A stretch of DNA of 64,000 nucleotides from Patescibacteria group bacterium (GCA_041737595.1 JBGSRK010000014.1:118-64117); one strand, 5' to 3'; positions 404 to 49,022 are shown, numbered from the stretch's first letter. Notes: generated by a model from the sequence alone, not told the origin. A program made the numbers and translations.

Positions 404-1342
404 CTACGCCAGAACTCCCAGAGGACGGACCGCGTGGCTGCGCCAGCGACTGCCGGAAGTGTCGTCCACGACGTTCGCGAGTCCACCGTAGTCGGAGCGA
501 CCACCGATAAAGCGGGACGAAGCACTCTTGAAGAACTCCTCGTACCAACACCAGGTGCTGGTGGTGCCGTCATCCTTGCGCGGCATGTTCATGTAGAGTT
601 GCGGGATGATGTTGGCCTCGATAGCCATCTCCAAGCGAACCTGAGTCGGCTCGAGGCCGAGGCGCTCAGCAATGGCCGCCTTCAAGTGGTCTTCCCACTC
701 GATGGAGGAGATGCCGAAGCGACTGGTCTGCGGACCGTACTGGTAGCGTGCGAGCTTACCATCCTTGCGGAGGCGGTCGATCACGCGACCCATGAAATCA
801 CGGTCCTTGGCGAACATCTGCTTGCCGTCGTTATAGTTCGGCTTCTTGCGGGTGTCGATGAGGACGACCCTTCCTGGGAGAAGGTCACCACTCGCCTTGA
901 CGAGGGTTCCATCATCGTTACGGTGATACAGGTTGCCGTTTTCGGCCTGATCCCAGTACCAGCTCTCGGGCTGGATCTTCCAGCCATCAAACGACGTGTT
1001 ACGCATGAGGACAGTCGACGGCAAGAAGTGGACTTCAAGGCCCAGCTTCTTCCACTCGGCGATCTTCGCGTAACCGTAGCGCTCGATGGTCTCCCGCATC
1101 AGCGTGAGGTCGAACTCCTGGCCAAAGAAGGCCAGGTGGGCGACACGTTCCGCGTCGAGAAGGTTCATGACCCACTCGTCGGGGATGAATGCCGAACTAC
1201 CGTTGATCGCTTGCGCGATCTTGTCCAGTGTTGCCGCGTTGTTCTTGGCAACTTTGAACACCTCCATGGTGACGCCGCGCTTTACGAGCTTGCGCTCAAA
1301 GTCGGCGCCGTCGGATAACGATTCGAACAATTTCTCAGACAT
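404..1342 (-). CDS. Hypothetical protein (312 aa), high GC (about 58%). Its C-terminus carries the FKSASSRFIGGRSDYGGLANV motif. Likely horizontally acquired.
   Basis: Long ORF with GC3-rich codons. An RBS aggagatgg lies upstream of the ATG at 1342. The stop codon sits inside the hairpin gtaggccttcggcctac. Confidence 0.6.
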   Translation of the reverse strand: MSEKLFESLSDGADFERKLVKRGVTMEVFKVAKNNAATLDKIAQAINGSSAFIPDEWVMNLLDAERVAHLAFFGQEFDLTLMRETIERYGYAKIAEWKKLGLEVHFLPSTVLMRNTSFDGWKIQPESWYWDQAENGNLYHRNDDGTLVKASGDLLPGRVVLIDTRKKPNYNDGKQMFAKDRDFMGRVIDRLRKDGKLARYQYGPQTSRFGISSIEWEDHLKAAIAERLGLEPTQVRLEMAIEANIIPQLYMNMPRKDDGTTSTWCWYEEFFKSASSRFIGGRSDYGGLANVVDDTSGSRWRSHAVRPLGVLA

Positions 1343-9144: not shown

Positions 9145-9219
9145 TGGTTCGGGAGGAGGGATTCGAACCCCCGAATGCATGGACCAGAACCATGTGCCTT
9201 ACCACTTGGCGACTCCCGA
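9145..9219 (-). tRNA. tRNA-Gln, anticodon CTG, 75 nt, with the CCA end encoded.
   Basis: Reverse complement reads TCGGGAGTCGCCAAGTGGTAAGGCACATGGTTCTGGTCCATGCATTCGGGGGTTCGAATCCCTCCTCCCGAACCA. It has a perfect 7-bp acceptor stem, loop TTCTGGT, and T-loop TTCGAAT. Confidence 0.85.
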
Positions 9220-9465
9220 TTATAAATTATCAAATAACTTTTTTAATTTCTTACCACCTCTCAGAGTCTTCGAGTATTTTTCCCTTTTTAAAGCCTCGTC
9301 ATATGTTGTAAATGACTCAGAATAAATTAGAATTAATGGTCTTCTACTTTTGGTGGCAAATACGCGACCCATTTTATGGTCTAAAAGTCTTTTGGTCAAA
9401 TTTGAGGTGGAACCCTTGTATAGCTTTCCGTCTTTTTCGCTACGTAATACATAAAAGTGATTCAT
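9220..9465 (-). CDS. GIY-YIG nuclease-family protein of the UPF0213/COG2827 type. The start is taken at MNHFYV, and the stop codon directly abuts the tRNA-Gln 5' end.
   Basis: MNHFYVLRSEKDGKLYKGSTSNLTKRLLDHK...RRPLILIYSE...AL.REK matches the GIY-YIG consensus. The ORF 9220..9540 extends upstream through a tRNA-derived leader. Confidence 0.7.
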   Translation of the reverse strand: MNHFYVLRSEKDGKLYKGSTSNLTKRLLDHKMGRVFATKSRRPLILIYSESFTTYDEALKREKYSKTLRGGKKLKKLFDNL

Positions 9466-9480
9466 AGTCTCTCTTATCTT

Positions 9481-9534
9481 ACCACTTGCCTGCCCGAGAC
9501 GACACGTCTCGTGTCGGCCAGAGGCGACTCCCGA
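9481..9534 (-). pseudogene. Fragment of the tRNA-Gln 5' end. The acceptor 5' strand and D-arm, TCGGGAGTCGCC...CAAGTGGTAAG, are split by a 35-nt GC-rich insertion that contains the palindrome cgagacgacacgtctcg.
   Basis: Exact match of accacttg and ggcgactcccgat to the tRNA-Gln at 9201-9220. The palindrome lies at 9495-9511. Confidence 0.5.
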
Positions 9535-9595
9535 TTGCATATTTAGTATATGTTAAAAATAGATTCTGAATCAAGTTTAGAATTACAAATAACAT

Positions 9596-16321: not shown

Positions 16322-16507
16322 TGAGCTATTATCTATTTTATTGACCCTTTTTACTAGTAGACAATATATATTTGATTGTTAAATATGTGTGTTATTTATC
16401 TAACTAAGTAAGCGCAGGGACTAAATAAAGTGAAGACCGCCTTTCAGCGGCCTTCTTTAGGTTTCCGTTGATAAGCGGTCAGTTGCATTTTATGGAGGAT
16501 CTTGGCC

Positions 16508-17266
16508 TTATCCGAAGAGCCGGCAGTACAGAGCGTAACCTGTTATACCTAGTACCGCCAATCCTGCGATAAGAAGGAACATTCGTCCTTTTGCTCGCGC
16601 TTCTTGGGCGGCAAGATTGGAATAGTAGGCTTGTCCAGCGGATTCGGGGAAGTACTCATCAAGAAGCATCTCCTCTTCTAATGGACTCATAGTTCTGGAC
16701 TGCATGAACATCGGTGTTTCCTTCCCAGCCGGGTTGGCTAAAAGCAAAAACCACAGAACTTCAGTCAATACCTTGTAGCCACCACCTTGAGCAATGTTGC
16801 GGTTTGAATCCCCGCCCAACAGCTCATTAGACGAATCCAGCCATTTCTCCCGTTCTTCACGGAAGTAATAGCCACCGACAGCATTAGAGAACCGTCGTTC
16901 CCAATCGCTCCCACCTTCTCGCTTGCCAGCTAGATAAGCTAGAACGTCTTCTGCGACTTCGATGCCGTAAGGCATATTGTCGCGCATTCCCATGATGGAA
17001 AGACCACCCAGCTCCTCATGAGGCTTCTCCTGGAAAACTAACCTTTCTGCCTCGGATGGATAGAGCCTTTCCAGATTACGGATGTAGTCCTGGTAACGCT
17101 CCTCTTTGATCTTTGCCATACGGGCGTCGTCCTCGGGTCCATAACTAACGAGATACCTGGCTGTAAGTAGGCCATTCCAGTCAGCCATGGGGTTGATACA
17201 ATTGCACGTTCCTCCTTCTCCTCGGTTTACGAACGGACAACCGTTACACATCGAAAATCCCCACAT
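16508..17266 (-). CDS. Hypothetical protein (252 aa) with a Cys-rich N-terminus (CNGCP...CNC) and a C-terminal TM anchor. GC is about 52%. Likely horizontally acquired.
   Basis: GC-rich ORF. RBS aggagga upstream. A hairpin with T-tract lies downstream at 16436-16460. Confidence 0.55.
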   Translation of the reverse strand: MWGFSMCNGCPFVNRGEGGTCNCINPMADWNGLLTARYLVSYGPEDDARMAKIKEERYQDYIRNLERLYPSEAERLVFQEKPHEELGGLSIMGMRDNMPYGIEVAEDVLAYLAGKREGGSDWERRFSNAVGGYYFREEREKWLDSSNELLGGDSNRNIAQGGGYKVLTEVLWFLLLANPAGKETPMFMQSRTMSPLEEEMLLDEYFPESAGQAYYSNLAAQEARAKGRMFLLIAGLAVLGITGYALYCRLFG

Positions 17267-17460: not shown

Positions 17461-18132
17461 TTATATCATATATTTTTCAGGAAACATGCGGCTGTAAGTA
17501 TAGTTCATTGAAGTTAGAAAATTTAAAAATGGGATAAATACAAAAGGGACAAGACCTAAAAGAGTAATATCAAACATCCAAGAAATATACATTCCAATTA
17601 TCATAATTGGTACAACAAAAGTTGAAGTGTGGTGGTGATAATATTTTTTAGAAACAATTTTAATTCTTTTTGAAAATTCCCATATAAATAATGGCCAAAG
17701 TAAAGTTAACATTTTTGGATCTAGTTCAGTTTTTTTCCCATCCAACGCTAAAAAAAATCTCCAGGTACGGTACATCCAATAAAACGGGAAAAGGCCAAAT
17801 GTTATAAGAGTTAATAAAATAAATTGAGAAGCCGTGATAACAATAACTTCTTTTTTAATTTTATTTGCAAACTCCCCTGCTTTTGCACAATCAACCCAAT
17901 CATGTTTACATTTTTTTGAATCTAGAATTTCCCGACAGATTGGACAAATTTCCTCAGAACAATAAAGGTGATGTAGTTTATTCTTTTTTACACCACATTT
18001 TTTACAATCTTTTTCAGCTGGGAGTCTTTTTGCGCTTTTCCCGGCATCATTAATTATATAGTCAAAATCACAACCAGAGCTCTTGCTGATTGTTTTATTA
18101 CACAAAATACATTTTTCAACTTCTTTTACCAT
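17461..18132 (-). CDS. Membrane protein with N-terminal zinc-ribbon motifs and four C-terminal TM helices.
   Basis: CILCN...CKKCG...CPICR followed by hydrophobic segments. Confidence 0.5.
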   Translation of the reverse strand: MVKEVEKCILCNKTISKSSGCDFDYIINDAGKSAKRLPAEKDCKKCGVKKNKLHHLYCSEEICPICREILDSKKCKHDWVDCAKAGEFANKIKKEVIVITASQFILLTLITFGLFPFYWMYRTWRFFLALDGKKTELDPKMLTLLWPLFIWEFSKRIKIVSKKYYHHHTSTFVVPIMIIGMYISWMFDITLLGLVPFVFIPFLNFLTSMNYTYSRMFPEKYMI

Positions 18133-18225
18133 TTGTGAAGAGATTATACTGCTATTATGCCTTTAAAACAAGATAAAAACAGTATTGTCATAAAAAAAGA
18201 TCAATATTTATGATAAAATAGGCCG

Positions 18226-18807
18226 ATGGCAAATATAGGAATAGATTTAGATGAAGTACTTGCGGATTTTAATACATCCTTTATTGAATTTCATAATAAA
18301 AAATATAACTCAAAATTAAACCCAAATAATATAAAGGATTATTTTTTAAGAAATTTAGTTGATATATCTGCAGAAGAGGAAATGAAAAGATTGATTGAAT
18401 TTTGCGATACAGGTCTTTTAAAAACAGTTTCCCCCTTCCCAGAAGCCATAATAAGTGTCAAAAATCTTTTAAAAAATAATAATTTATATTTAATTACAGC
18501 ACGTCCAAATTTTATGGAAGAAGATACCTTGGAGTGGGTAGAAAAATATTTCCCAAACACATTTAAAGAGGTCATTATTACAAGTCATGTTTTGGATGGT
18601 AAAATTGAAAAATCAGAGGTTTGTCTTTCTAATAATATTAATTATATGATAGAAGATAATAGCTATTATGCTAATGAATGTGCTTCTTTTGGTGTCATTT
18701 CTTTTTTACTAACACGATCTTGGAATATCAATGATACTTTAAAATCGGGGGTAATTAGAGTTTCGAGTTGGAAAGATATTGAGGATAAAATAAATGAAAA
18801 TATTTGA
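18226..18807 (+). CDS. 5'(3')-deoxyribonucleotidase-like HAD-superfamily hydrolase.
   Basis: N-terminal IGIDLDEVLADF matches the NT5C/HAD motif I. Confidence 0.65.
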   Translation: MANIGIDLDEVLADFNTSFIEFHNKKYNSKLNPNNIKDYFLRNLVDISAEEEMKRLIEFCDTGLLKTVSPFPEAIISVKNLLKNNNLYLITARPNFMEEDTLEWVEKYFPNTFKEVIITSHVLDGKIEKSEVCLSNNINYMIEDNSYYANECASFGVISFLLTRSWNINDTLKSGVIRVSSWKDIEDKINENI

Positions 18808-20011
18808 TGTTTGTGTAGTTGGTTCTGGACCTGCAGGGCTTATGTCTGCAATAACTGCTGGCAGTGCGGGACGATCTGTTATTCTTTTAGAAAAAAATGG
18901 AAAAATAGGCCGTAAAATTCTCGCAACTGGAAATGGCAGATGTAATATTACAAATAAGAATATAAATATTTCAAGATATCACGGAGGGGATAAAAATTTT
19001 ATCACTGAAGTAATAAATAAGTTTGATCAAAATAAAACTATAAATTATTTTGAATCATTAGGCATTTTATTAAAAGAAGAAGACAAGGGAAGAATTTTCC
19101 CAGTCACAAATCAAGCACAAACAATTGTGGATGCTCTTACACATGAACTTGAAAAAAATAATGTGAAAATAGAACTTCAAACTGAAGTAAAAAACATTGT
19201 AAAGGAAGATGATTTTATAATTACTCTTATTTCTGGTAATGTTATTTTTGCACGTAAATTAATATTAGCGACTGGTGGGAAAGCAGCACATCAATTTGGT
19301 TCTTCTGGTGATGGTATATTTTGGGCAAGAAATTTTGGTCATACAATTACTCAAATTCATGCAGCCCTTTGTCCTATTGAGGTAAACGAAAGTTGGGTTC
19401 GTGATATACAAGGGTTGAGAGTTGAAGCAAAATTAACTGCTATGGTAGATAATAAAAAAATTGCAGAATTTTATGGTGATACTCTTTTCACCCATTTTGG
19501 GATATCTGGCCCTGCTCCAATGGCATTTTCCGGGGATATATCACCCTTGATAAATAAATCTGAAATAAAAATAATAATAGATTTATTCTCAAATATAGAG
19601 GTTTTAGAGCTAGATAATAAACTGGAAAAAATATTTAAAAATGCAGGTAAAAAATCTGTTAAAAATTCCTTAAGTGGAGTTATCCCCCAAAATCTTGTAC
19701 CAATTATCCTTAAAATTATAGAAATTGATGAAAATAAAAAAGCCGCTGAGATATCAGCAAAATACAGAAAAAATATAGTTAATGCATTAAAAAATTTAAC
19801 TATCACGGTTAAATCAATAAGGCCCTTAAAAGAAGCACAAGTAACAAGGGGCGGGGTTGAACTTTCTGAAATTAACTCAAAAACACTTGAATCAAAAATT
19901 ATAAAAAATTTATATTTTGCAGGTGAAATTATGGATGTTGATGGAGACTCTGGTGGATTTAATCTTCAGTGGGCCTGGTCTTCAGGGTATTTAGCGGGTA
20001 ATAGTATTTAG
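18794..20011 (+). CDS. BaiN/HI0933-like NAD(P)/FAD-dependent oxidoreductase.
   Basis: GSGPAG dinucleotide motif, ATGNGRCN, and a GG..LQWAW C-terminal region. Confidence 0.8.
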   Translation: MKIFDVCVVGSGPAGLMSAITAGSAGRSVILLEKNGKIGRKILATGNGRCNITNKNINISRYHGGDKNFITEVINKFDQNKTINYFESLGILLKEEDKGRIFPVTNQAQTIVDALTHELEKNNVKIELQTEVKNIVKEDDFIITLISGNVIFARKLILATGGKAAHQFGSSGDGIFWARNFGHTITQIHAALCPIEVNESWVRDIQGLRVEAKLTAMVDNKKIAEFYGDTLFTHFGISGPAPMAFSGDISPLINKSEIKIIIDLFSNIEVLELDNKLEKIFKNAGKKSVKNSLSGVIPQNLVPIILKIIEIDENKKAAEISAKYRKNIVNALKNLTITVKSIRPLKEAQVTRGGVELSEINSKTLESKIIKNLYFAGEIMDVDGDSGGFNLQWAWSSGYLAGNSI

Positions 20012-21402
20012 TCTAAATTATCTAAATATGGTTTAATAAAACTACTTCTAGATGGGTGTCTAAGTTTTAATAAAACCTTTGATTCTATTTGTCTTATTCT
20101 TTCTCGAGTAATTCCAAATATTTTTCCAATGTCATCATATGTATGAGTATCTTCTCCATTTAAACCATATCTAAGTTCTATTATTTTTTTTTGTTTATCC
20201 GTAAAATCGTTAAGTAATACATTTAAATCTTCTTTTAAGAGTTTTTTGATTACCAACTTAGCTGTATCCTCAGATAATAATTGTTCATCAACTTCTTCTG
20301 ATTCGACATCTAGTGGCTCTTCTGCCATATTTCTATAACTCTTACTTTTTGCAATTTCGAAGTCTCTAGTTGGTATGCCTTTAAATTTTCTAGTTTTATT
20401 ATCTTTAACTTCTTCTTTTATTGTTTCTAATCTAGCTCTTTCTTTATTTAAATTATCAATAAGTGGTATTAAATCACTAATTATAGACTTATATTCTTTA
20501 ATACGAAAGCTATTAGATAGTGCATTTCCAATAATAAGTTTATCCCTCCATCTGTTTATAATATCTGTGCAAGTCTTTTCGCGTTTTTCTCTTAATATAT
20601 CAAGTTTTCGTCTTGCTTTAGCTATCTCCTCTTTAACCTCAGCAGCTTCTCTTCTTTTTACAATAAAAGTTTTTTCTTTATCTGTTTTTAAATCTTTTAG
20701 TTTTTGTAATTTTTCTTGGTAATCTTTGAGGAGTATGTCCAGTTCTGCTTCAATTGAATTTTCTTCATCAAGAGAATCAGTATCTAAAATTTCTTGATAT
20801 AATTTAGATATATCATCTACATCAAGCTCTCCTAAATACGAACGTTTATTCCAAATTTCATAATTAAGTTTACGGGAAAGAACCTCGATTGCATTTTCCA
20901 AATCTTTTTCTAATATTAATAATTCTTTTTGTGCAGAAATTGTTGCATCGTGTTCTTGGACTTCATCAGATAAATTTTCATAATGTTCAATATTTATATC
21001 TGGATCTTTTTCAGTGTATCTTTTGAATGAATTCTTTATACTATAATAAATTTTAGAATATAAATTTAAATTATCTTCATTAATATTATCAAGTTCTTCT
21101 ACATATTCTCTGATTGCTTCAATTAATCCAGTAATTCCTAATTGTCTTAAATCTTCAACAAATTGAGCTTTTTCAGCATATTCTTCAACAAACTTGTCAA
21201 CTAAGGGTTCATATAAATAAATAAGACGATCAAGCGCCTCTTCGTTTCCAGCTTTTAACTCTTTTAATAAGGAAAATATAGTTTCTGAGTCTCTATAACT
21301 TCTTTCATTGCGTTTTTTTTGTGCTATAAAATCACTTTCGGTATTTTCTAATCCAAGATGTTCCATATACCAAAGTATATTAGTTAAAGTAAAAATAAAC
21401 AA
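20008..21402 (-). CDS. Atypical sigma-70-like protein. It has a region-2.1/2.2-like N-terminal part, a coiled-coil K/E-rich segment of about 250 aa, and a canonical region 4 HTH that ends in RHPSRS.
   Basis: C-terminal ELRYGL...TYDDIGKIFGITRERIRQIESKVLLKLRHPSRS closely matches RpoD region 4.2. The middle of the protein lacks regions 2.3-3. Confidence 0.6.
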   Translation of the reverse strand: MFIFTLTNILWYMEHLGLENTESDFIAQKKRNERSYRDSETIFSLLKELKAGNEEALDRLIYLYEPLVDKFVEEYAEKAQFVEDLRQLGITGLIEAIREYVEELDNINEDNLNLYSKIYYSIKNSFKRYTEKDPDINIEHYENLSDEVQEHDATISAQKELLILEKDLENAIEVLSRKLNYEIWNKRSYLGELDVDDISKLYQEILDTDSLDEENSIEAELDILLKDYQEKLQKLKDLKTDKEKTFIVKRREAAEVKEEIAKARRKLDILREKREKTCTDIINRWRDKLIIGNALSNSFRIKEYKSIISDLIPLIDNLNKERARLETIKEEVKDNKTRKFKGIPTRDFEIAKSKSYRNMAEEPLDVESEEVDEQLLSEDTAKLVIKKLLKEDLNVLLNDFTDKQKKIIELRYGLNGEDTHTYDDIGKIFGITRERIRQIESKVLLKLRHPSRSSFIKPYLDNLD

Positions 21403-21411
21403 TATTTAAAA

Positions 21412-21470
21412 AAAGAAAGACCCGCACTGTATGCGCGGGATCTCCCCTTATACATTAGTGCGGGTAGTGA
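21412..21470 (-). terminator. GC-rich hairpin terminator with U-tract at the 3' end of the high-GC operon 21479-22781. A closely related element lies at 22886-22945.
   Basis: acccgcact ... agtgcgggt 9-bp stem. On the minus strand it is followed by tctttcttttttt. Confidence 0.6.
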
Positions 21471-21478
21471 TTGAGGTG

Positions 21479-21841
21479 CTATGCAACCAGGGCTTCGTCT
21501 GGCAGCATCTTGATGGGTTTCTTCTCCCAGTGATCGCACTTAGGAGGTAGAACGAAGGTTGTGCAGGCTACACCTGGGCTCCTTGGGTTAAGGAGTAGAT
21601 AGTAGGTGTAACGTGAAAGCTGATGGTTCTTCCTTGTACGATCAAGGATCGTCTTTCTGACATTCTTGTGTCGCTTCCCCATATCGTGATGTGAAATAGC
21701 GACATGTACCTCCCGAACATCAGGTTTGTACAAGATAGTTGTCTTGACATTGATGTTTTGAATCTTCTGCTCCATTGTTGCGAGCATCTCCTCTGGCGAT
21801 TGCAAGAACAGCGCCTCCCCGAGTTGTGGATTTCCAGGCAT
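21479..21841 (-). CDS. Hypothetical protein (120 aa), high GC. It is the last gene of a four-gene operon.
   Basis: Its ATG directly follows the stop of the upstream small ORF. The overlapping alternative-frame ORF 21568..21921 has junk-like R/S/C composition. Confidence 0.5.
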   Translation of the reverse strand: MPGNPQLGEALFLQSPEEMLATMEQKIQNINVKTTILYKPDVREVHVAISHHDMGKRHKNVRKTILDRTRKNHQLSRYTYYLLLNPRSPGVACTTFVLPPKCDHWEKKPIKMLPDEALVA

Positions 21842-21940
21842 CTATCGTTTCTTACGTGGTTTAGTGGATGGAGGTGATTTGCCCTTCTTTTGTTTGGGTT
21901 TTTTGTTTTCACGACCTCCACGGTTTCTGGGATGTGCCAC
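21842..21940 (-). CDS. Lys/Arg-rich micro-protein (32 aa), VAHPRNRGGRENKKPKQKKGKSPPSTKPRKKR, with a GTG start.
   Basis: Strong RBS aaggagg 7 nt upstream of the GTG. The stop is immediately followed by the next ATG. Confidence 0.3.
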   Translation of the reverse strand: MAHPRNRGGRENKKPKQKKGKSPPSTKPRKKR

Positions 21941-21952
21941 TAGAGCACCTCC

Positions 21953-22330
21953 TTAGTCATACTCACTGCTTCTGATTTGATCGGCTTTCTCGGTTTCAAT
22001 CTCCCTTTTGCTGAGTATGCCCGACTTGTTGAGCAGTTCATAAGCATACTCGCCAATCAGATTAGATGCAACATCTTCAAGCGAGTTTAAGGGTGGTTTT
22101 TGATTGAGTCCATAATCCCTTATGTTCTCAATTGCAGAATCCTCTGCTTCGATTCCAGATTCCACCCGATCAATCCGCTCAATGAAGGATAGGAGATACA
22201 AACCTCCCTTATTTTCGACGCAGGCGGTCAGCATGATCATTTCAAGATCATAGTCCGAGTCCCCGATCATCTTTATGATATGGGTCATAATCTCGGTTAC
22301 TCTCCCTATTACCCATTCATTGACTTTCAT
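21953..22330 (-). CDS. Hypothetical acidic protein (125 aa), high GC.
   Basis: ORF that overlaps the upstream gene by 14 nt, suggesting translational coupling. Confidence 0.5.
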   Translation of the reverse strand: MKVNEWVIGRVTEIMTHIIKMIGDSDYDLEMIMLTACVENKGGLYLLSFIERIDRVESGIEAEDSAIENIRDYGLNQKPPLNSLEDVASNLIGEYAYELLNKSGILSKREIETEKADQIRSSEYD

Positions 22331-22781
22331 GTTCCCCCCTACTGTGTTTTGCCCTCTTGTGGATATTAGTGAAGTGTTCCAAGATCTTTTTAGAGACTAA
22401 AACGAGAAAATTATTAGTCTCTTTAAAGATGTCTGGATCGATAGCTTCACCAGCAATGAAGTCTTCGAGGGTTTCATGAAAATCAGTAATAGCATCGATT
22501 GGGTCTGGATAGTCCTCCTTGATTGCTTCGAGAACTTCGGAATACCAACCGATCTTCTTGGCGAGGAAGAAGCAAAGTGCCCCTTCATCTACTAGTAGGT
22601 CCTCTTCCAAGAGAAAAAGCCATTCGATGGTGTTTGATGTAGTAATAAGTATTTCGAGATGTTCGTCTACAATCTCATCTGCTGCACCACCGATAATGCG
22701 GGCCATTTCGAGGACCGCAAAGCCACTCTCTATATCACGTACGATTGATGAGGAAACGGTAACTGTTACATCGCTGTACAT
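22317..22781 (-). CDS. Hypothetical acidic protein (154 aa), high GC. First gene of the operon.
   Basis: RBS gaggtgagg upstream. An AT-rich promoter-like region lies at 22790-22850. Confidence 0.5.
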   Translation of the reverse strand: MYSDVTVTVSSSIVRDIESGFAVLEMARIIGGAADEIVDEHLEILITTSNTIEWLFLLEEDLLVDEGALCFFLAKKIGWYSEVLEAIKEDYPDPIDAITDFHETLEDFIAGEAIDPDIFKETNNFLVLVSKKILEHFTNIHKRAKHSRGEHESQ

Positions 22782-22885
22782 AGTACCTCACCTCATTTCG
22801 TATCATTGGAAGTTGGGTCTATTTTATTACAAAATATAAAAGAAGCAAGGGATACATATAAATATATTTAAATATTAGTTAGTAA

Positions 22886-22945
22886 ACTATTTAAGAAAGA
22901 CCCGCACGTGTGCGAGTCAATCTTAATCGCTTAGTGCGGGCTAGA
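22886..22945 (-). terminator. GC-rich hairpin terminator of the EEP gene. The stop codon is embedded in the stem. It shares tatttaa-gaaagacccgcac ... ttagtgcggg with 21412-21470.
   Basis: cccgcac...gtgcggg stem plus a ccgccactaatgatggcgg hairpin. On the minus strand it is followed by tctttctt. Confidence 0.55.
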
Positions 22946-23857
22946 ATCCGCCATCATTAGTGGCGGGAATGGGTATTCGAGCGTTGTAACAACTGGATAA
23001 TGGTCAGATGGGTATCTACCAGAACGACTGTATTTGATTATCTGCCCACCAGAGACCTTCCATTCTGGTGATGCAAATATCATGTCGATTCGTGGTCCGC
23101 CAGAACCAGTAAAACCATGGAATGTTCCAATGGGTTTATCTGATTCTTCGATACAATCACGAAGTAGGTCGAAATTTCTTGCAGACTCGACCGAGTTACT
23201 TCTAAGAACGTTGAAGGTTGATGAATCTGCTGATTCATTGAAGTCTCCGCCAAGAATAACAAGATTACCGTTGTTGTTATGCACCCAACTCGCGAGCATT
23301 CTGACTGACTCTTTTCGCGATTCACTTGATTCATGGTCAAGATGAGTTGAGGCAACTGCAATTGGTTGTGATTGAAATTCATCCCACAGCGTTAGAGAAG
23401 TGTAGCAACGAGGTATTCTATTCCCCCAACTTACTGATTCAGTAAGTTTAGGAGCGTTTGAAAACCAGAGTCTTTCCGTTGTGTTGACCTGAACTCTAAA
23501 TCGGTCTTCACGAAAGAAAATAACTGGGTATCCTCGCCATTGCTTCCCAATACCGGCTGTTGCGACTCGGTAACCTAGAACTTTTGATTTCAGGTAACTG
23601 AGTTGCATCGGGGTTGCTTCTTGAATCATGATGATGTCTGGGGCTACTTCTTTGATGACATCAACGACCATTGTTCTCCTGAAAAGCCAAGAGTCTAATC
23701 CGTCAAAAGCCATACTTGTTCTGATATTAAAGCTCATGACGATAAGCCCATCTCTTTCGGGCCAGACCATCGGTTCAGTTCCTTGTTGTATTCCACTCAA
23801 AGGTACTACTGCAATAAGCAGCAATACTATGGCTAAAAGCCTTAGTTTCCTGCTCAT
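22931..23857 (-). CDS. Secreted endonuclease/exonuclease/phosphatase (EEP) family protein, GC about 50%.
   Basis: Signal peptide MSRKLRLLAIVLLLIAVVPLSG. EEP motifs: IMIQE, GGDFN, and SDHYPV at the C-terminus. Confidence 0.75.
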   Translation of the reverse strand: MSRKLRLLAIVLLLIAVVPLSGIQQGTEPMVWPERDGLIVMSFNIRTSMAFDGLDSWLFRRTMVVDVIKEVAPDIIMIQEATPMQLSYLKSKVLGYRVATAGIGKQWRGYPVIFFREDRFRVQVNTTERLWFSNAPKLTESVSWGNRIPRCYTSLTLWDEFQSQPIAVASTHLDHESSESRKESVRMLASWVHNNNGNLVILGGDFNESADSSTFNVLRSNSVESARNFDLLRDCIEESDKPIGTFHGFTGSGGPRIDMIFASPEWKVSGGQIIKYSRSGRYPSDHYPVVTTLEYPFPPLMMADSSPH

Positions 23858-23937
23858 CGCTTACTCCTTTTCTTGGGAGATTGTGATGGTATTTTAAATT
23901 AATAAACCTACAAATGCAAATTAAACAATTTAAGATA

Positions 23938-25065
23938 TTATTTTTTATTATTAGATAGTTTATTTTCGTGACGTTTTTTAGTTCTCTTGCGAAGTTCTTT
24001 AATTAGTTTTCTAGGATCAGTTGGGACATACCCTCCACGAAGAACCTTTGAAAGATAAAACCTTGAAGAAAGATAGAATAAAAGTGCCAATGCAAGGATT
24101 GCAGAAACACTAACTAATATATTTTCTTTAAGGCCCGCTGAAGCAAGAATAGTGGGTGGGGTATCCCCTCCTCCAGTTTCTATTTCAGGTGTTTCTGGTG
24201 GCACCTCAGGTTGGTAGTTCCCAAAAATAAAATTTTGTGTAGAAGTGTCTGTAGTTACGTTATGTGAATCTGTTAAACCAGTTGTACTTTCCCAACCATC
24301 TTTAAGTATTTCGGTTACAGTATAATCGCCTTGATCAAGTTCAGTTAAAGTAGCTTGGCCAATTAAGTCAGTAGTTACTGTTTCTGAAACATTATTACCA
24401 ATTACTTTAAATTGCCAGCCCGAAAGGTATGACTCACTAGTTTCTCTTATCCCATTATGGTTTAAATCATTATATTTTCTTATGGTTAATGATATTTTTG
24501 GTGTCTCAGGTGTTTCGGGTATTGGCGTTGGTGCTGGTGCTGGGCGAATTCTTTTACCAACTCCAATAACTATGTTTCCACATGATTTTAAAATACCATA
24601 AGCCATAGAACCATCATAATTTTGGTAAATATATGCATCAATTGAAGTAGATAAAAAACTTACAGAAGGGTGACGTTTATAAAGAGGATAAGAAAGACCA
24701 GTTATCTTAGTAGAACCAGAGATGTTATGCCTACCCATGGTATATACATTAGTAGCAATAACCTTATTTGCAACAAGGACCTGGTTTGTCTTTGTTACTC
24801 TACCTTCTTTTAAATTTGGAATATCAGAAATATCAAACCCATATTTTTTAAAAAGTGCTTTAAGCTCTTTTGAGGTTTGATAAGTTTTACCGGTTCCGTT
24901 ATTTAATTTATTAGTTAGTTCAGTTTTTGTTAGTGTTCCACAATAAATTACTGAATTGCCATCACAATCTCTAGCTCCAGCAAATGCAACAGGTATAAAT
25001 AATGAAATATTTAAAAATATTACTAAACTTATTAAAGCTATTTTCTGAATATATATTTTGTTCAT
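23938..25065 (-). CDS. Secreted or membrane-anchored surface protein. Its N-terminal domain is shared with the protein at 47073..49022, followed by one prealbumin/SdrD-B-like repeat, a Pro/Thr linker and a TM anchor.
   Basis: Signal peptide. DCDGNSVIYCGTLT...KSCGNIV is conserved with the paralog. Confidence 0.6.
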   Translation of the reverse strand: MNKIYIQKIALISLVIFLNISLFIPVAFAGARDCDGNSVIYCGTLTKTELTNKLNNGTGKTYQTSKELKALFKKYGFDISDIPNLKEGRVTKTNQVLVANKVIATNVYTMGRHNISGSTKITGLSYPLYKRHPSVSFLSTSIDAYIYQNYDGSMAYGILKSCGNIVIGVGKRIRPAPAPTPIPETPETPKISLTIRKYNDLNHNGIRETSESYLSGWQFKVIGNNVSETVTTDLIGQATLTELDQGDYTVTEILKDGWESTTGLTDSHNVTTDTSTQNFIFGNYQPEVPPETPEIETGGGDTPPTILASAGLKENILVSVSAILALALLFYLSSRFYLSKVLRGGYVPTDPRKLIKELRKRTKKRHENKLSNNKK

Positions 25066-25178
25066 TTTCCCCCTAAAATTATTACATATATATTATGTTT
25101 CTTTTAAATAATTATGTCAACCAATAAAGTAAAAAAGCACCGAATTTTAGCTCGGTGCTTTAATCTATTTTAAATATC

Positions 25179-25778
25179 TTATTTGAAAATTTTAAATTTC
25201 TTTTTTGGTGGTTCCGCTTTTGTTTCTGGTGTAACAGTTTTATATGGTTTTTGTTTATTTTGACTTGTTTTTGTATGGAGCGTAAACCTTTCAGATTCCT
25301 TATCTAAATCATAGAAATCATCTACTTCATTAATTAGTTTAGCCGATGTACTTTTCCCAAAAGATATTACTTCTGCTCGACAACCCTCTGCTTTAACATG
25401 GTGGAGAAGGTCTACATAATCTCCATCTCCTGAAATAAGAACTACTGCATCTAATTTTGGTGCCATCTTCAAAACATCAACTGCAACACCAACATCCCAG
25501 TCACCTTTTTTCTGCCCAGATACAAAAGTTTGAAGTTCTTTTGATTTAACTTCAAAACCAAGACCAGAAAGAGCATCAAAAAATGTTTGTTCTTCTGGCA
25601 TATCAGCCTTAATTGTATAAGCAATCGCTCTAATTAGTTTTCGACCAGAAATTGCTTCTTTTAATATTTCGCCAAAGTTAACTTTGTGCCCATAAAGTGC
25701 TTTTGCACTGTAATATAAATTTTGGACATCAACAAAAACACCAACTCTTTGATCGGGGTTTTTTAAATTATTTAACAT
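25179..25778 (-). CDS. NYN-domain (LabA-like) protein.
   Basis: VGVFVDVQNLYY ... VLISGDGDY motif pattern. Confidence 0.75.
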   Translation of the reverse strand: MLNNLKNPDQRVGVFVDVQNLYYSAKALYGHKVNFGEILKEAISGRKLIRAIAYTIKADMPEEQTFFDALSGLGFEVKSKELQTFVSGQKKGDWDVGVAVDVLKMAPKLDAVVLISGDGDYVDLLHHVKAEGCRAEVISFGKSTSAKLINEVDDFYDLDKESERFTLHTKTSQNKQKPYKTVTPETKAEPPKKKFKIFK

Positions 25779-25821
25779 TTTCCTCCTTAAATTTTATAAT
25801 AATATTAGAAATGTGGACTTA

Positions 25822-26169
25822 TTAAAAACTGAATTTTTCTGGCGGTAGATCAAGTGTTTGCCAATTTCCAAATTCATCTTTTTTAAAAACAGTTACTTTA
25901 TAAGAAAACTCATCTTCTGAAACAACAAATTCTACATCAGCGCCACCAGCTCCCTTATGATAATGGGCTTTTCTATCTAATATTTTAGGGTGAGAAGTTC
26001 TTTCAATTTTTAAACTTCCCAAGGGTGAATCAAATTCTAACGCTTCAATTTTTTGGGGAAGTTTATTCCCTATGTCATCTTCCAAAACATTGTTAGAGAC
26101 ATGAGATTCAAATTTCCCAAATCTATTTTCTATCTTATCTTTTAGATCTTGCCATCTTTCATCGTTCAT
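25822..26169 (-). CDS. Hypothetical protein (115 aa).
   Basis: ORF with native composition. Confidence 0.45.
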   Translation of the reverse strand: MNDERWQDLKDKIENRFGKFESHVSNNVLEDDIGNKLPQKIEALEFDSPLGSLKIERTSHPKILDRKAHYHKGAGGADVEFVVSEDEFSYKVTVFKKDEFGNWQTLDLPPEKFSF

Positions 26170-26170
26170 T

Positions 26171-26779
26171 TTAAACCATATCTTTCTGAGCAGGTGCTAC
26201 TGTGAAATATTCTACTCCCTTATATTCTAACTTATTACCTACTTCAAGTCGAGTAATGGAAGCATTTCTAATTTCAGTTTTATTAATTTCAGAAAAATCA
26301 ACTAAGTTAGTTAGAACTTGAACTGCAGCTATAACTTCACCATGAGTTATTACAGCAATATTTTTCCCTTGGTTTTTTTTACTTATATCTTGAATAAATT
26401 CCTCAGTACGATGTAAAACTTCAGCTATTGGCTCACCAAACTTTAAAAACCTCTCTGGGTGGTTAATGTAAATATCAATTTGTTTTTTATTACGTTTATT
26501 TTTTTCAATACCTTCCCAGACCTTAATATTAATTTCTATCAGCCTTTTATCAATATGTACTTTATTACTTTCAGCAATTATTTTTGCAGTTTCTCTCGCA
26601 CGAAAAAGAGGGCTAGAATAATAAGAATTAATACCAATATTATTTAAGTATTTTTTAATTATTTGAGCCTGAAATTCTCCAAGCTTTGATAATTTAAAAT
26701 TAGGTAATTGACCATAAATAATTTTTTTAGGGTTAAATACTTCACCATGTCTTATAAAAAATATGTTTGTTTTTTTCAA
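26171..26779 (-). CDS. Histidine phosphatase family protein, phosphoglycerate-mutase-like.
   Basis: RHGE catalytic motif (IFFIRHGEV) and a later RARETA. Confidence 0.75.
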   Translation of the reverse strand: MKKTNIFFIRHGEVFNPKKIIYGQLPNFKLSKLGEFQAQIIKKYLNNIGINSYYSSPLFRARETAKIIAESNKVHIDKRLIEINIKVWEGIEKNKRNKKQIDIYINHPERFLKFGEPIAEVLHRTEEFIQDISKKNQGKNIAVITHGEVIAAVQVLTNLVDFSEINKTEIRNASITRLEVGNKLEYKGVEYFTVAPAQKDMV

Positions 26780-47072: not shown

Positions 47073-49022
47073 TCATTTTTTTAGAGCGCCAAGAAGATTT
47101 TTCTTTGAACGTATCCAGGCAAGTAGTCCACCCGAAAGTGTCATAGATGCACCGGCAGCCCCGGCAGTTTCAATTGGACCAGAAACTGGAAGAGTTTCTC
47201 CCCCACTTGGTGGTGTTACAGGAGGTGTTATAGGAGGTGTTGTTATTCTTTGGTTACCAAATACTGTAACTTCAGTTTCTCCTTCTTCTATCTCTCTTGA
47301 AAGGGTTATCCCTGTAGTATTAATCCAGTCATCCCTTAAAACTTCAGTAACTGTATATTCACCAGGTTCGAGATCAGTTAGCTCTGCAAAACCATTAGAA
47401 TCAGTAGTTAGTGTTTCTCGGAAATTTGGACCAGTTACTATAAACTGCCATCCAGCTAAATTTTGTTCTCCATTATCTTGAATTCTATTATTATTAGCAT
47501 CTTCAAATTTATATACTTGAAGATTAGATTTTAGCGGAATTCTTTGGTTACCAAACACAACAGTAGTATCACCTGAAAGACGTACATCAACAGTACCAGA
47601 AGTAGTAATTCTCCATCCTGACTGTTCAATTTCTCTAACTGTATATGTACCTGCAAGCAAATTACTTAGTGTTGCAACCCCTGAAGTATTGGTAGTAATA
47701 GTTTGATCAACATTATTACCCGTTACTCTAAACTGCCAACCTGATATTAATGGTTCAGTTAAATTTTCTCTAGAACCATTCCCATTAACATCATTAAACT
47801 TTTGAACATTTAAAGAGTATCTAAGCGGAATTCTTTGATTACCAAACACAACTGTAGTATTACCAGCAACATTTACATTTACAGTACCTGAAGTAGTAAT
47901 TCTCCATCCTGACTGCTCAATTTCTCTAACAGTATAACTACCAGCTGTAAGATTACTTAGTGTTGCAATACCAGAGCTATTAGTGGTAATTGTTCGATCG
48001 ATACCATTCCCTGTTACTCTAAACTGCCAATTTGGTAAAAGTGCTTCTGAAGAAATTTCACGAGTTCCATTACCATTAACATCATTAAACTTTTGAACTG
48101 TTAATGTATATGCGGCAGGAAGTATTCTTTGGTTACCAAACACTCTACCAATTCTTGCTCCTGCGGCTCCTGAGGCCACAAGTGTTTGAGGATTTTGAGT
48201 TGTAACTCTATAACCACTCGGTACCGATTCAGCGATAGTATATGTTCCTCCGGCCATACCATAAAACCATGCATAACCCATTGAATCTGTTACTGCGGTT
48301 TTATTTACTCCGTTACCAGTTAGCCTAAATGTTACGCCTTGGTGTCTTTGGTTTTCATTTGAATCCCAATGACCATTCCCATTAGCATCAATAAATTTAA
48401 GAGCATAAAGTCTATATGTTGGAGCAGGAGCTAAAATTTTACCAGGGACTATATTCCCACAAGATTTAATAATAGCCATTCTAAAAGAGCCATCAGTATT
48501 TAGGTATATGAAGGCCGGGATTGAATTTGAAATAAAACTTTGAGCAGGATGTCTTAAATATAGTGGATAGCTTATACCAGAAACTTGGGTAGACCCTGAT
48601 GTCCAATGTCTCCCCATAGAATAAACATTAGAAGCAATTGTTTTCCCGTTTAATACAACAGTATTTGATTTTGTGACATATCCTTCTTTAAGTTTCCCAT
48701 AGTCAGCAACATTGTAACCAAATTTATTATATAAGGCAGTTAGTTGTGTAGCGGACTGATTTGTTCTTCCGGTACCATTTCTTATTTTATTATTTAATTC
48801 TGTTGTAGTTAAAGTCCCACAATAAATAACAGCATTATCATCACAATCTCGTCCACTACCACCATTTACTATTAAAGGGGAAATTAATACACCAGAAAGT
48901 AAAGCTACTGAAAGTACCACAAACATTTTTTTAAATATATTTTTCATACCCAACTCTTTCTGCCAAGACCTACTAATTTTTACTTGACTTATGAGTATAT
49001 CATACCAAACAAACCTTGTCAA
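47073..49022 (-). CDS. Large surface protein and candidate sortase substrate. It has a signal peptide and an N-terminal domain shared with 23938..25065, then five prealbumin/SdrD-B-like repeats, then C-terminal LPVSG followed by a hydrophobic stretch and the basic tail RSKKN.
   Basis: The C-terminus ...ETLPVSGPIETAGAAGASMTLSGGLLAWIRSKKN fits a cell-wall sorting signal. Repeat motifs WQFRVTGN...YTVREIEQSGWRITT. Confidence 0.7.
   Translation of the reverse strand: MTRFVWYDILISQVKISRSWQKELGMKNIFKKMFVVLSVALLSGVLISPLIVNGGSGRDCDDNAVIYCGTLTTTELNNKIRNGTGRTNQSATQLTALYNKFGYNVADYGKLKEGYVTKSNTVVLNGKTIASNVYSMGRHWTSGSTQVSGISYPLYLRHPAQSFISNSIPAFIYLNTDGSFRMAIIKSCGNIVPGKILAPAPTYRLYALKFIDANGNGHWDSNENQRHQGVTFRLTGNGVNKTAVTDSMGYAWFYGMAGGTYTIAESVPSGYRVTTQNPQTLVASGAAGARIGRVFGNQRILPAAYTLTVQKFNDVNGNGTREISSEALLPNWQFRVTGNGIDRTITTNSSGIATLSNLTAGSYTVREIEQSGWRITTSGTVNVNVAGNTTVVFGNQRIPLRYSLNVQKFNDVNGNGSRENLTEPLISGWQFRVTGNNVDQTITTNTSGVATLSNLLAGTYTVREIEQSGWRITTSGTVDVRLSGDTTVVFGNQRIPLKSNLQVYKFEDANNNRIQDNGEQNLAGWQFIVTGPNFRETLTTDSNGFAELTDLEPGEYTVTEVLRDDWINTTGITLSREIEEGETEVTVFGNQRITTPPITPPVTPPSGGETLPVSGPIETAGAAGASMTLSGGLLAWIRSKKNLLGALKK
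47530..48130 (-). repeat. Tandem in-frame DNA repeats of about 290 bp that encode the repeated beta-sandwich domains of the surface protein.
   Basis: Recurring ggaattctttggttaccaaacaca at about 47534, 47824 and 48123, and gtagtaattctccatcctgactg in each unit. Confidence 0.6.

Follow-up and report, generated by a model that had tools for sequence, protein, structure and literature searches.

Two related terminator-like hairpins at the ends of neighbouring GC-rich transcription units in a Patescibacteria genome

We analysed a 64,000-nucleotide stretch of DNA from a Patescibacteria group bacterium (JBGSRK010000014.1:118-64117 of GCA_041737595.1; hereafter the window), in which a hairpin-forming element occurs twice on the minus strand, at 21408-21467 (copy T1) and at 22893-22944 (copy T2). 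From the evidence presented here we conclude that T1 and T2 are probably two related Rho-independent terminators, each of which closes one self-contained, GC-rich transcription unit. Unit 1 would consist of a promoter, the gene of a secreted hydrolase of the Exo_endo_phos family (EEP) and T2, and unit 2 of a promoter, four small orphan genes, which we refer to as the operon, and T1. Read in this way, the finding is a case of ordinary gene punctuation, in which foreign-looking units carry their own terminators and shield a sigma-factor gene of the host.

Likeness of T1 and T2

Read on the minus strand, T1 has the sequence CCCGCAC-TAA-TGTATAAGGGGAGAT-CCCGCGC-ATACA-GTGCGGG-TCTTTCTTTTTTT, with a distal 5' arm (A, CCCGCAC) at 21464-21458, TAA at 21457-21455, an interior, a proximal 5' arm (A', CCCGCGC) at 21439-21433, the 3' arm (B, GTGCGGG) at 21427-21421 and a U-tract at 21420-21408. 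T2 reads CCCGCAC-TAA-GCGATTAAGATTGA-CTCGCAC-AC-GTGCGGG-TCTTTCTT, with A at 22940-22934, TAA, which is the stop codon of the EEP gene, at 22933-22931, A' (CTCGCAC) at 22916-22910, B at 22907-22901 and the U-tract at 22900-22893. The common form on the coding strand is CCCGCAC-TAA, an interior of 23-27 nt and GTGCGGG-TCTTTCTT. A CTA before the 5' arm is also common to both copies, and the bounds of the repeat were taken to run from this CTA to the end of the T-tract. While the arms are identical at 25 of 25 positions, the interiors are only about half identical.

A reading of the window made earlier from the sequence alone (the sequence-only reading) had placed the same element at both sites, which is borne out by two exact occurrences of AAGACCCGCAC, the only ones in the 64 kb (plus strand, 21417-21427 and 22897-22907; 0.21 expected with one mismatch allowed), and by a gapped local alignment of the two regions with a score of 48, compared to 18.6 +/- 2.7 for shuffled sequences (maximum 31). 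The pattern CCCGCAC-N(10-40)-GTGCGGG is likewise found exactly twice in the window (21421-21464 and 22901-22940) and 0.00 times in shuffles. Indeed, the likeness exceeds chance, as had been supposed: compared in register, the 3' arm and tail (GTGCGGGTCTTTCTT) are identical at 15 of 15 positions, whereas the best of 166 other pairs of terminator-like sequences in the window reaches 10 of 15 (mean 5.7, standard deviation 2.0). The terminators of the host in the window are A/T-flanked stems with sequences unrelated to T1 and T2, so that the element is not the host's own terminator consensus.

Neither a mismatch search nor a covariance model, with which T1 scores 40.3 and T2 45.7 bits, revealed a third copy in the 64-kb window, and over the window and ten related loci the model found no further member, the next best matches being generic terminators at 15-17 bits. 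A further GC-rich orphan gene at 16424-17266 (252 amino acids (aa), GC 0.50, GC at third codon positions (GC3) 0.51), for which no Pfam, PHROG or PADLOC match was found, ends in the terminator GAAGGCCGC-TGAAA-GGCGGTCTTC; this scores only 15.8 bits with the hairpin model and therefore lies outside the T1/T2 module.

Past the two copies, an alignment suggested homology running on into the AT-rich promoter region, which was dropped, because similarity in the AT-rich downstream DNA was not significant compared to composition-matched shuffles (p = 0.09 to 0.7). Separately, an AT-rich motif, TTAAAT(T/A)GTTTA on the minus strand, recurs at three unit junctions, i.e. after the stop codon of an SdrD-like surface-protein gene (23915-23935), after T2 (22875-22895) and after T1 (21385-21407). 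According to a rough estimate this recurrence has no significance, and it is only suggestive; the motif may reflect a target duplication or be no more than AT-rich sequence of a promoter-like kind.

Hairpin structure and predicted termination

The fold of the minus strand has an energy of about -23 kcal/mol for T1 (z -2.7 to -3.6) and of -21.5 to -27.9 kcal/mol for T2 (z -4.3 to -4.7), and in both copies a U-tract follows on this strand, as had been noticed for the coding strand; on the plus strand, no T-tract follows the hairpin in either copy. The long hairpin of ACCCGCACU and AGUGCGGGU that had been described for each copy needs to be qualified, since both copies fold but the 9-bp stem is present in T1 only, T2 having seven Watson-Crick pairs and a G-U pair instead.

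Because each copy contains a near-repeat of the 5' arm (A'), a short hairpin can form as an alternative to the long one, at almost the same energy. The distal arm gives the long, two-tier form and the proximal arm the short form, a classical terminator hairpin, and in each copy the two forms lie within about 1 kcal/mol of each other (-22.9 vs -21.9 kcal/mol in T1). The short hairpin of T1 (21439-21421) has seven pairs, six of which are GC, a loop of 5 nt and the tail TCTTTCTTTT; that of T2 (22918-22899) has eight pairs (five GC), a loop of 4 nt and the tail TTTCTTAAAT. Hairpin energies in the terminator test were -19 to -23 kcal/mol. The two-tier build, which comprises an outer helix of 7-9 bp, an internal loop of about 3x3, an inner helix of 4-6 bp and a U-tail (-20 to -24 kcal/mol), is found in T1 and T2, in the related contig L004 and behind five EEP orthologues, both of which are described further below.

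Each copy stands at the 3' end of a gene of the same orientation and precedes the next unit. The distal arm of T2 covers the last two sense codons of the EEP gene, with the TAA stop straight after it, and a conserved promoter-like stretch begins about 45 nt after T2. T1 begins 14 nt past the TAG of the gene for a 120-aa protein and ends 41 nt short of the ATG of the sigma-factor gene. T1 and T2 resemble Rho-independent terminators in general in that a GC-rich hairpin on the coding strand runs directly into a U-rich tract, in their location on or shortly behind a stop codon, before the next promoter begins, and in the compensatory stem changes among eight sequences. They differ from them in the long two-tier hairpin, in the duplicated 5' arm with its two nearly isoenergetic forms, in the distal arm that overlaps the stop codon, in the interruption of the U-tract by C, and in an unusually strong conservation (47 of 52 positions of T2, see below) at a divergence that has saturated synonymous sites.

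In the nascent RNA, the 3' arm GUGCGGG would pair with one of the two 5' arms. If this is the distal arm CCCGCAC, which adjoins the stop codon or overlaps with it, the two-tier hairpin of about 45 nt would form; if it is the proximal near-copy, a classical hairpin of 7-8 bp with a loop of 4-5 nt would result. Since either hairpin abuts the U-tract UCUUUCUU, RNA polymerase should be released in both cases. T2 would thereby block read-through into the promoter of the operon, and T1 read-through into the sigma-factor gene. T1 and T2 would have a common origin, whether T1 arose as a local duplicate or both descend from one gene pool.

At T1 the 120-aa open reading frame (ORF) is followed in frame by ...CCG CAC TAA, as in T2, and read-through of the TAG or an alternative genetic code was considered. 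This was rejected, because all three stop codons are used throughout the window (TAA 42, TAG 10 and TGA 10 over 62 ORFs, host genes included); moreover, the stop codon of the L004 EEP gene lies 5' of the arm and in a different frame.

Conservation of the hairpin behind EEP genes

The EEP gene (22931-23857, minus strand) encodes a 308-aa hydrolase (PF03372, E = 1.2e-18) with a GC content of 43.7% and a GC3 of 0.37, the N-terminus of which is, judged by eye, hydrophobic and signal-peptide-like. Its predicted promoter is TTGCAT-17 nt-TAAAAT at 23891-23920 on the minus strand (the scan gave TTTGCA-18-TAAAAT), and a TTGCAT -35 hexamer was also seen by eye at the matching position upstream of two EEP orthologues (L006 and L007).

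EEP homologues with 44-64% identity stem from genomes of about 42-46% GC, and the gene neighbourhood is different in each of them. In every one of these homologues, CCCGC(C)...G(G)CGGG and a T-tract follow or straddle the EEP stop codon, with the same two-tier fold at -20 to -24 kcal/mol. The five orthologues with the hairpin that were compared share 44-49% amino-acid identity and represent five genomes and five gene neighbourhoods; this type of hairpin occurs once per orthologous locus and always behind EEP. After distant EEP orthologues (39-40% identity, genomes with 65-71% GC) the hairpin is absent. In every genome examined, the EEP gene is 6-10 points GC-richer than its own locus.

The pairing itself is conserved. 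Over eight sequences, 91% of the cells of the outer helix hold standard pairs, compared to 21-50% in controls with the partner shifted by 1-3 columns. Three outer pairs are doubly changed, with compensatory changes from CG to UA (in L007) and from AU to CG (between groups), and the observed covariation score was reached by 1 of 500 shuffles.

T2 and its counterpart in the closest relative, L004 (797-852), are identical at 47 of 52 positions, whereas fourfold-degenerate sites of the flanking genes are 0.50 identical (P about 5e-10), and in the unpaired interior 22 of 26 positions are identical between these two sequences. Judged by this alignment, the whole T2 sequence and not just its paired bases appears to be under purifying selection. 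Between E. coli and Salmonella, an identifiable orthologue exists for <20% of terminators, according to a preprint (bioRxiv 10.1101/2024.07.17.603904). In view of this figure and of the fourfold-site identity of 50%, T2 is therefore unusually constrained. It is most likely a long-held, gene-specific terminator of this EEP clade, in which case a terminator can outlast the saturation of synonymous sites and stay with its gene across rearranged genomes.

Separable units at one locus

Two contigs carry relatives of the GC-rich block. In L004 (SRR7589087), the order is EEP, T2', an extra unit and the operon, i.e. the order of the window plus the extra unit; since EEP, T2' and the operon occur together, both "islands" of the sequence-only reading travel together in the L004 lineage. 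The extra unit consists of a promoter matching the consensus at 12 of 12 positions, a 47-aa ORF, about 240 nt of non-coding sequence and a terminator that is unrelated to T1 and T2. The stretch of about 240 nt, located at L004 1105-1372 between the 47-aa ORF and the ordinary terminator, has no Rfam match and could represent an unknown RNA or a decayed gene.

The second contig, L013 (SRR17933190), was found by profile search with the 154-aa protein of the operon and comes from a relative of the host, as its SdrD-like protein is 81% identical to that of the window. Here, the operon directly follows the SdrD-like gene at the same locus, and 24 nt, without EEP or T2, stand in place of window 23936-22849, on both sides of which L013 otherwise aligns. 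These 24 nt, an 'empty site', resemble both flanks of the EEP unit. Since the operon is present without EEP and T2, we conclude that the two are separate promoter-gene-terminator units. The EEP unit (22849-23936, minus strand), which comprises promoter, gene, T2 and a short AT-rich tail, is a discrete insertion or deletion, and autonomous units of this promoter-gene-terminator type are stacked at the locus. Counting one island and counting two are each partly right, as the two are linked in L004, while L013 has the operon alone. The related idea that the module travels with its payload is true in so far as a T2-type hairpin stands behind EEP orthologues in five neighbourhoods and the units are separable; evidence for a copy-and-paste cassette was not found.

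Four long ORFs at 21479-23857, which encode the 308-aa EEP and proteins of 154, 125 and 120 aa, the last three of them without a family match, have GC3 values of 0.37-0.55, compared to a host median of 0.18. The genes closed by T1 and T2 are hence compositionally foreign, as had been proposed. In L013, the operon (976-2045, corresponding to window 21600-22848) has a GC3 of 0.5-0.8, compared to a host-gene value of 0.2. Between the window and L013, the synonymous sites of the host are saturated (fourfold-site identity 0.41), and since the operon kept its high GC3 nonetheless, a high GC content is no proof of recent arrival. In this lineage, being GC-rich need not mean that an "island" was acquired recently.

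Phage 'morons', known from lambdoid phage genomics, are insertions between genes that form autonomous units of promoter, gene and terminator with an atypical composition. The units described here share with morons a predicted promoter and terminator of their own, the atypical GC content, presence or absence at one site and the accumulation of units side by side (window, L004 and L013). In contrast to morons, they lack a prophage context: phage and plasmid DNA gave no match, PHROG no informative one and IMG/VR no relatives. A phage or plasmid origin was rejected, as no DNA match was found.

Alternative explanations

Several points weigh against T1 and T2 being plain, related terminators. The U-tracts of both copies are broken by C, and that of T2 is short (6 U in 9). 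Termination at either copy is a prediction from sequence and fold. The conservation of the unpaired interior of T2 goes beyond what a plain terminator needs and hints at an extra, sequence-specific role. Furthermore, identical arms combined with half-identical interiors match neither a recent duplication nor a simple gene conversion, and both L004 and L013 end inside the gene for the 120-aa protein, short of the position of T1. The arms and flanks that T1 shares with T2, together with the half-identical interior, do agree with a common origin further back in time and selection acting on the arms. A common pool for T1 and T2 is plausible. The operon proteins are near-orphans and therefore give no further handle on the 'common donor' of the sequence-only reading.

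The extra role brings us to a rather unlikely alternative, according to which the hairpin is a sequence-specific RNA or DNA element, besides or instead of a terminator, such as a regulator site (e.g. for a small basic protein of the island), a stabiliser in the 3' untranslated region (UTR) or a 3'-UTR-derived small RNA. The 22 of 26 identical positions in the interior of T2 at about 50% identity of neutral sites, as well as the conservation of T2 relative to the E. coli and Salmonella terminators in the preprint referred to above, would be explained in this way, and so would the 25 of 25 identical arm positions in T1 and T2 despite their differing interiors. Moreover, both A:B and A':B repeat one 7-mer in inverted form, which is operator-like. 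However, the T1/T2 hairpin has no Rfam match, and any loop-specific function would not be shared, because the interiors of T1 and T2 differ; the interior conservation, in turn, rests on two sequences only. A small-RNA target search of the window with the complement of the T2 loop gave matches at chance level.

It is unlikely that two terminators of separate origin, T1 and T2, arrived at one stable GC-rich stem by convergence. Among terminators, stems of the form CCCGC...GCGGG are very common, and a near-identical stem (CCCGCC/GGCGGG) is found behind other EEP orthologues; what the two copies share is short (a stretch of about 15 nt with its complement, and a stop codon), their interiors agree at only about half of the positions, and the downstream similarity is not significant. 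Convergence would nevertheless have to account for a 3' arm and tail that are identical throughout, compared to at most 10 of 15 positions among the 166 other pairs in the window, and for matching features outside the stem, namely CTA before and TAA after the 5' arm, TCTTTCTT and the unusual second 5' arm. In addition, T1 and T2 belong to one foreign block, at a distance of 1.5 kb, and are unlike every other terminator of the 64 kb.

We consider it very unlikely that the hairpin is an attC-like recombination site at cassette boundaries, with T1 and T2 as the 3' sites of neighbouring cassettes. Adjacent units with different payloads do have the same arms at their ends, with a variable centre between them, and unit 1 is present or absent at one locus between related genomes. 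Furthermore, no two of five genomes share the neighbourhood of EEP and hairpin, which are GC-richer than their flanks every time, and selection appears to act on all of T2 and not on the paired bases alone. A scrambled gene order is, however, expected anyway at 45% protein identity. Integron cassettes have in common with the units described here a 3' hairpin with conserved paired ends and a variable centre, which sometimes overlaps the stop codon, and similar sites on neighbouring units; they differ in that they usually carry no promoters of their own, whereas the units here have predicted ones. The RYYYAAC and GTTRRRY cores are absent on either strand of 21380-21500 and 22860-22980, so that an attC identity was rejected, and no integrase, including IntI, or transposase was found among the 18 ORFs around the locus that were scanned with Pfam. 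There are just two copies in the 64 kb, and the other EEP loci have no second one. As to an array of units that each end in such a site, the two adjacent units of the window do so, and the third unit, in L004, ends in an unrelated terminator. The proposed cassette mechanism is therefore not upheld, and a mobile cassette site is unsupported.

Outside these loci, a search for the T1/T2 pattern in 596 Gb of genomes and in the Joint Genome Institute (JGI) metagenomes returned only chance matches inside coding regions, and IMG/VR gave none. Single exact matches in a Treponematales genome (L001) and in a soil metagenome contig (L003) were dismissed as chance, as they lie inside GC-rich coding sequence. 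The lack of true copies in genome, metagenome and viral collections also speaks against a recombination site. If the hairpin were a recombination signal, this would define a new cassette system, to which the present evidence lends little support.

In its most far-reaching form, this idea would make the two-tier hairpin more than a terminator, namely the mobility signal of an undescribed promoter-gene-hairpin cassette that moves among small, AT-rich genomes of uncultured bacteria, which we regard as highly improbable. If true, it would explain why EEP and the hairpin are found in different neighbourhoods and are GC-rich in every genome, why a unit is present or absent at one locus, why the same arms occur with two payloads, and why the whole hairpin is under purifying selection.

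Two further candidates can be dismissed briefly. A dispersed repeat of the repetitive extragenic palindrome (REP) or miniature inverted-repeat transposable element (MITE) type would be expected in many copies, but there are only two in the 64 kb, and none of the genome, metagenome or viral collections contained a true one. Inverted pairs of DNA uptake sequences are known to double as terminators, as in Haemophilus (uptake signal sequence (USS) core AAGTGCGGT) and Neisseria (DNA uptake sequence, DUS). The 3' arm AGTGCGGGT of T1 and T2 resembles the Haemophilus USS core, and an inverted pair stands behind genes here as well; in contrast to uptake sequences, GTGCGGG occurs only 3 + 2 times in the 64 kb, mostly within T1 and T2, and AAGTGCGGT 0 times, so that this candidate was rejected for lack of over-representation.

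The operon and its genomic setting

The predicted promoter of the operon, TTGCTT-16 nt-TAAAAT (22821-22848, minus strand), lies in a stretch that is conserved in L004 and L013 (TTGyTTCTTTT..TTTGTAATAAAATAGACnCAACTTCCA); its counterpart in L004 is TTGATT-16-TAAAAT at 1382-1409. All four genes of the operon are located on the minus strand. The first (22317-22781) encodes an acidic 154-aa protein that is predicted to be all-helical and was assigned to no family. This protein family is very rare, with 8 relatives (P0126-P0133) among 1.84 billion representatives, and the AlphaFold model of the 154-aa protein has a predicted local distance difference test score (pLDDT) of 47. One family member is 1,693 aa long and contains four matched stretches. 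The second gene (21953-22330) encodes a 125-aa orphan found only in L004 and L013. Between it and the gene for the 120-aa protein lies an unannotated gene with a GTG start (21842-21940) for a very basic 32-aa peptide, MAHPRNRGGRENKKPKQKKGKSPPSTKPRKKR, which is 65% identical in L013 (1795-1892) and deleted in L004. The fourth gene (21479-21841) encodes the basic 120-aa protein and ends at the TAG located 14 nt before arm A of T1. The proteins of 154, 125 and 120 aa have no informative Pfam, PHROG or PADLOC match.

The genes of the window are AT-rich (median GC 0.32, median GC3 0.18), and the minus strand carries nearly all of them; the host appears to be an uncultured, AT-rich bacterium with a small genome. 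The GC-rich block is flanked by the SdrD-like surface-protein gene of the host (23938-25065) and by its sigma-70-family gene (20008-21366, minus strand; GC3 0.13), which lies directly downstream of T1 and would be insulated by it. An independent Logan assembly (L002, 8,382 nt) is 100% identical to window 17957-26338, and the arrangement and the junctions between host and island are therefore not due to a mis-assembly of the deposited contig. A search for strain variants without the island returned the same contig only.

Upstream of the sigma-factor gene (21366-21400, minus strand), a -10-like TATACT was seen by eye 7 nt before the ATG, with TTGTTT 17 nt further upstream and no Shine-Dalgarno sequence, which suggests that the sigma mRNA may be leaderless. 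The SdrD-like gene has a paralogue at 47073-48947, which encodes 624 aa and contains 291-nt tandem repeats (47472-48053); the two form a repeat-bearing surface-protein family.

Two further places in the window deviate in composition. The start of the contig (1-2176) is very GC-rich and includes a 312-aa ORF at 404-1342 (minus strand; GC 0.59, GC3 0.78) without a Pfam match, 90-nt direct repeats at 6-95 and 443-532, which are internal to the stretch, and a promoter at 1521-1492 that matches the consensus at 12 of 12 positions. Because it abuts a tRNA-Glu gene (2102-2176), this stretch gives the impression of a separate insertion of foreign DNA at a tRNA gene. Finally, a gene for a 106-aa GIY-YIG nuclease (9145-9540), the GC3 of which (0.36) is above the host level, lies directly beside tRNA-Gln.

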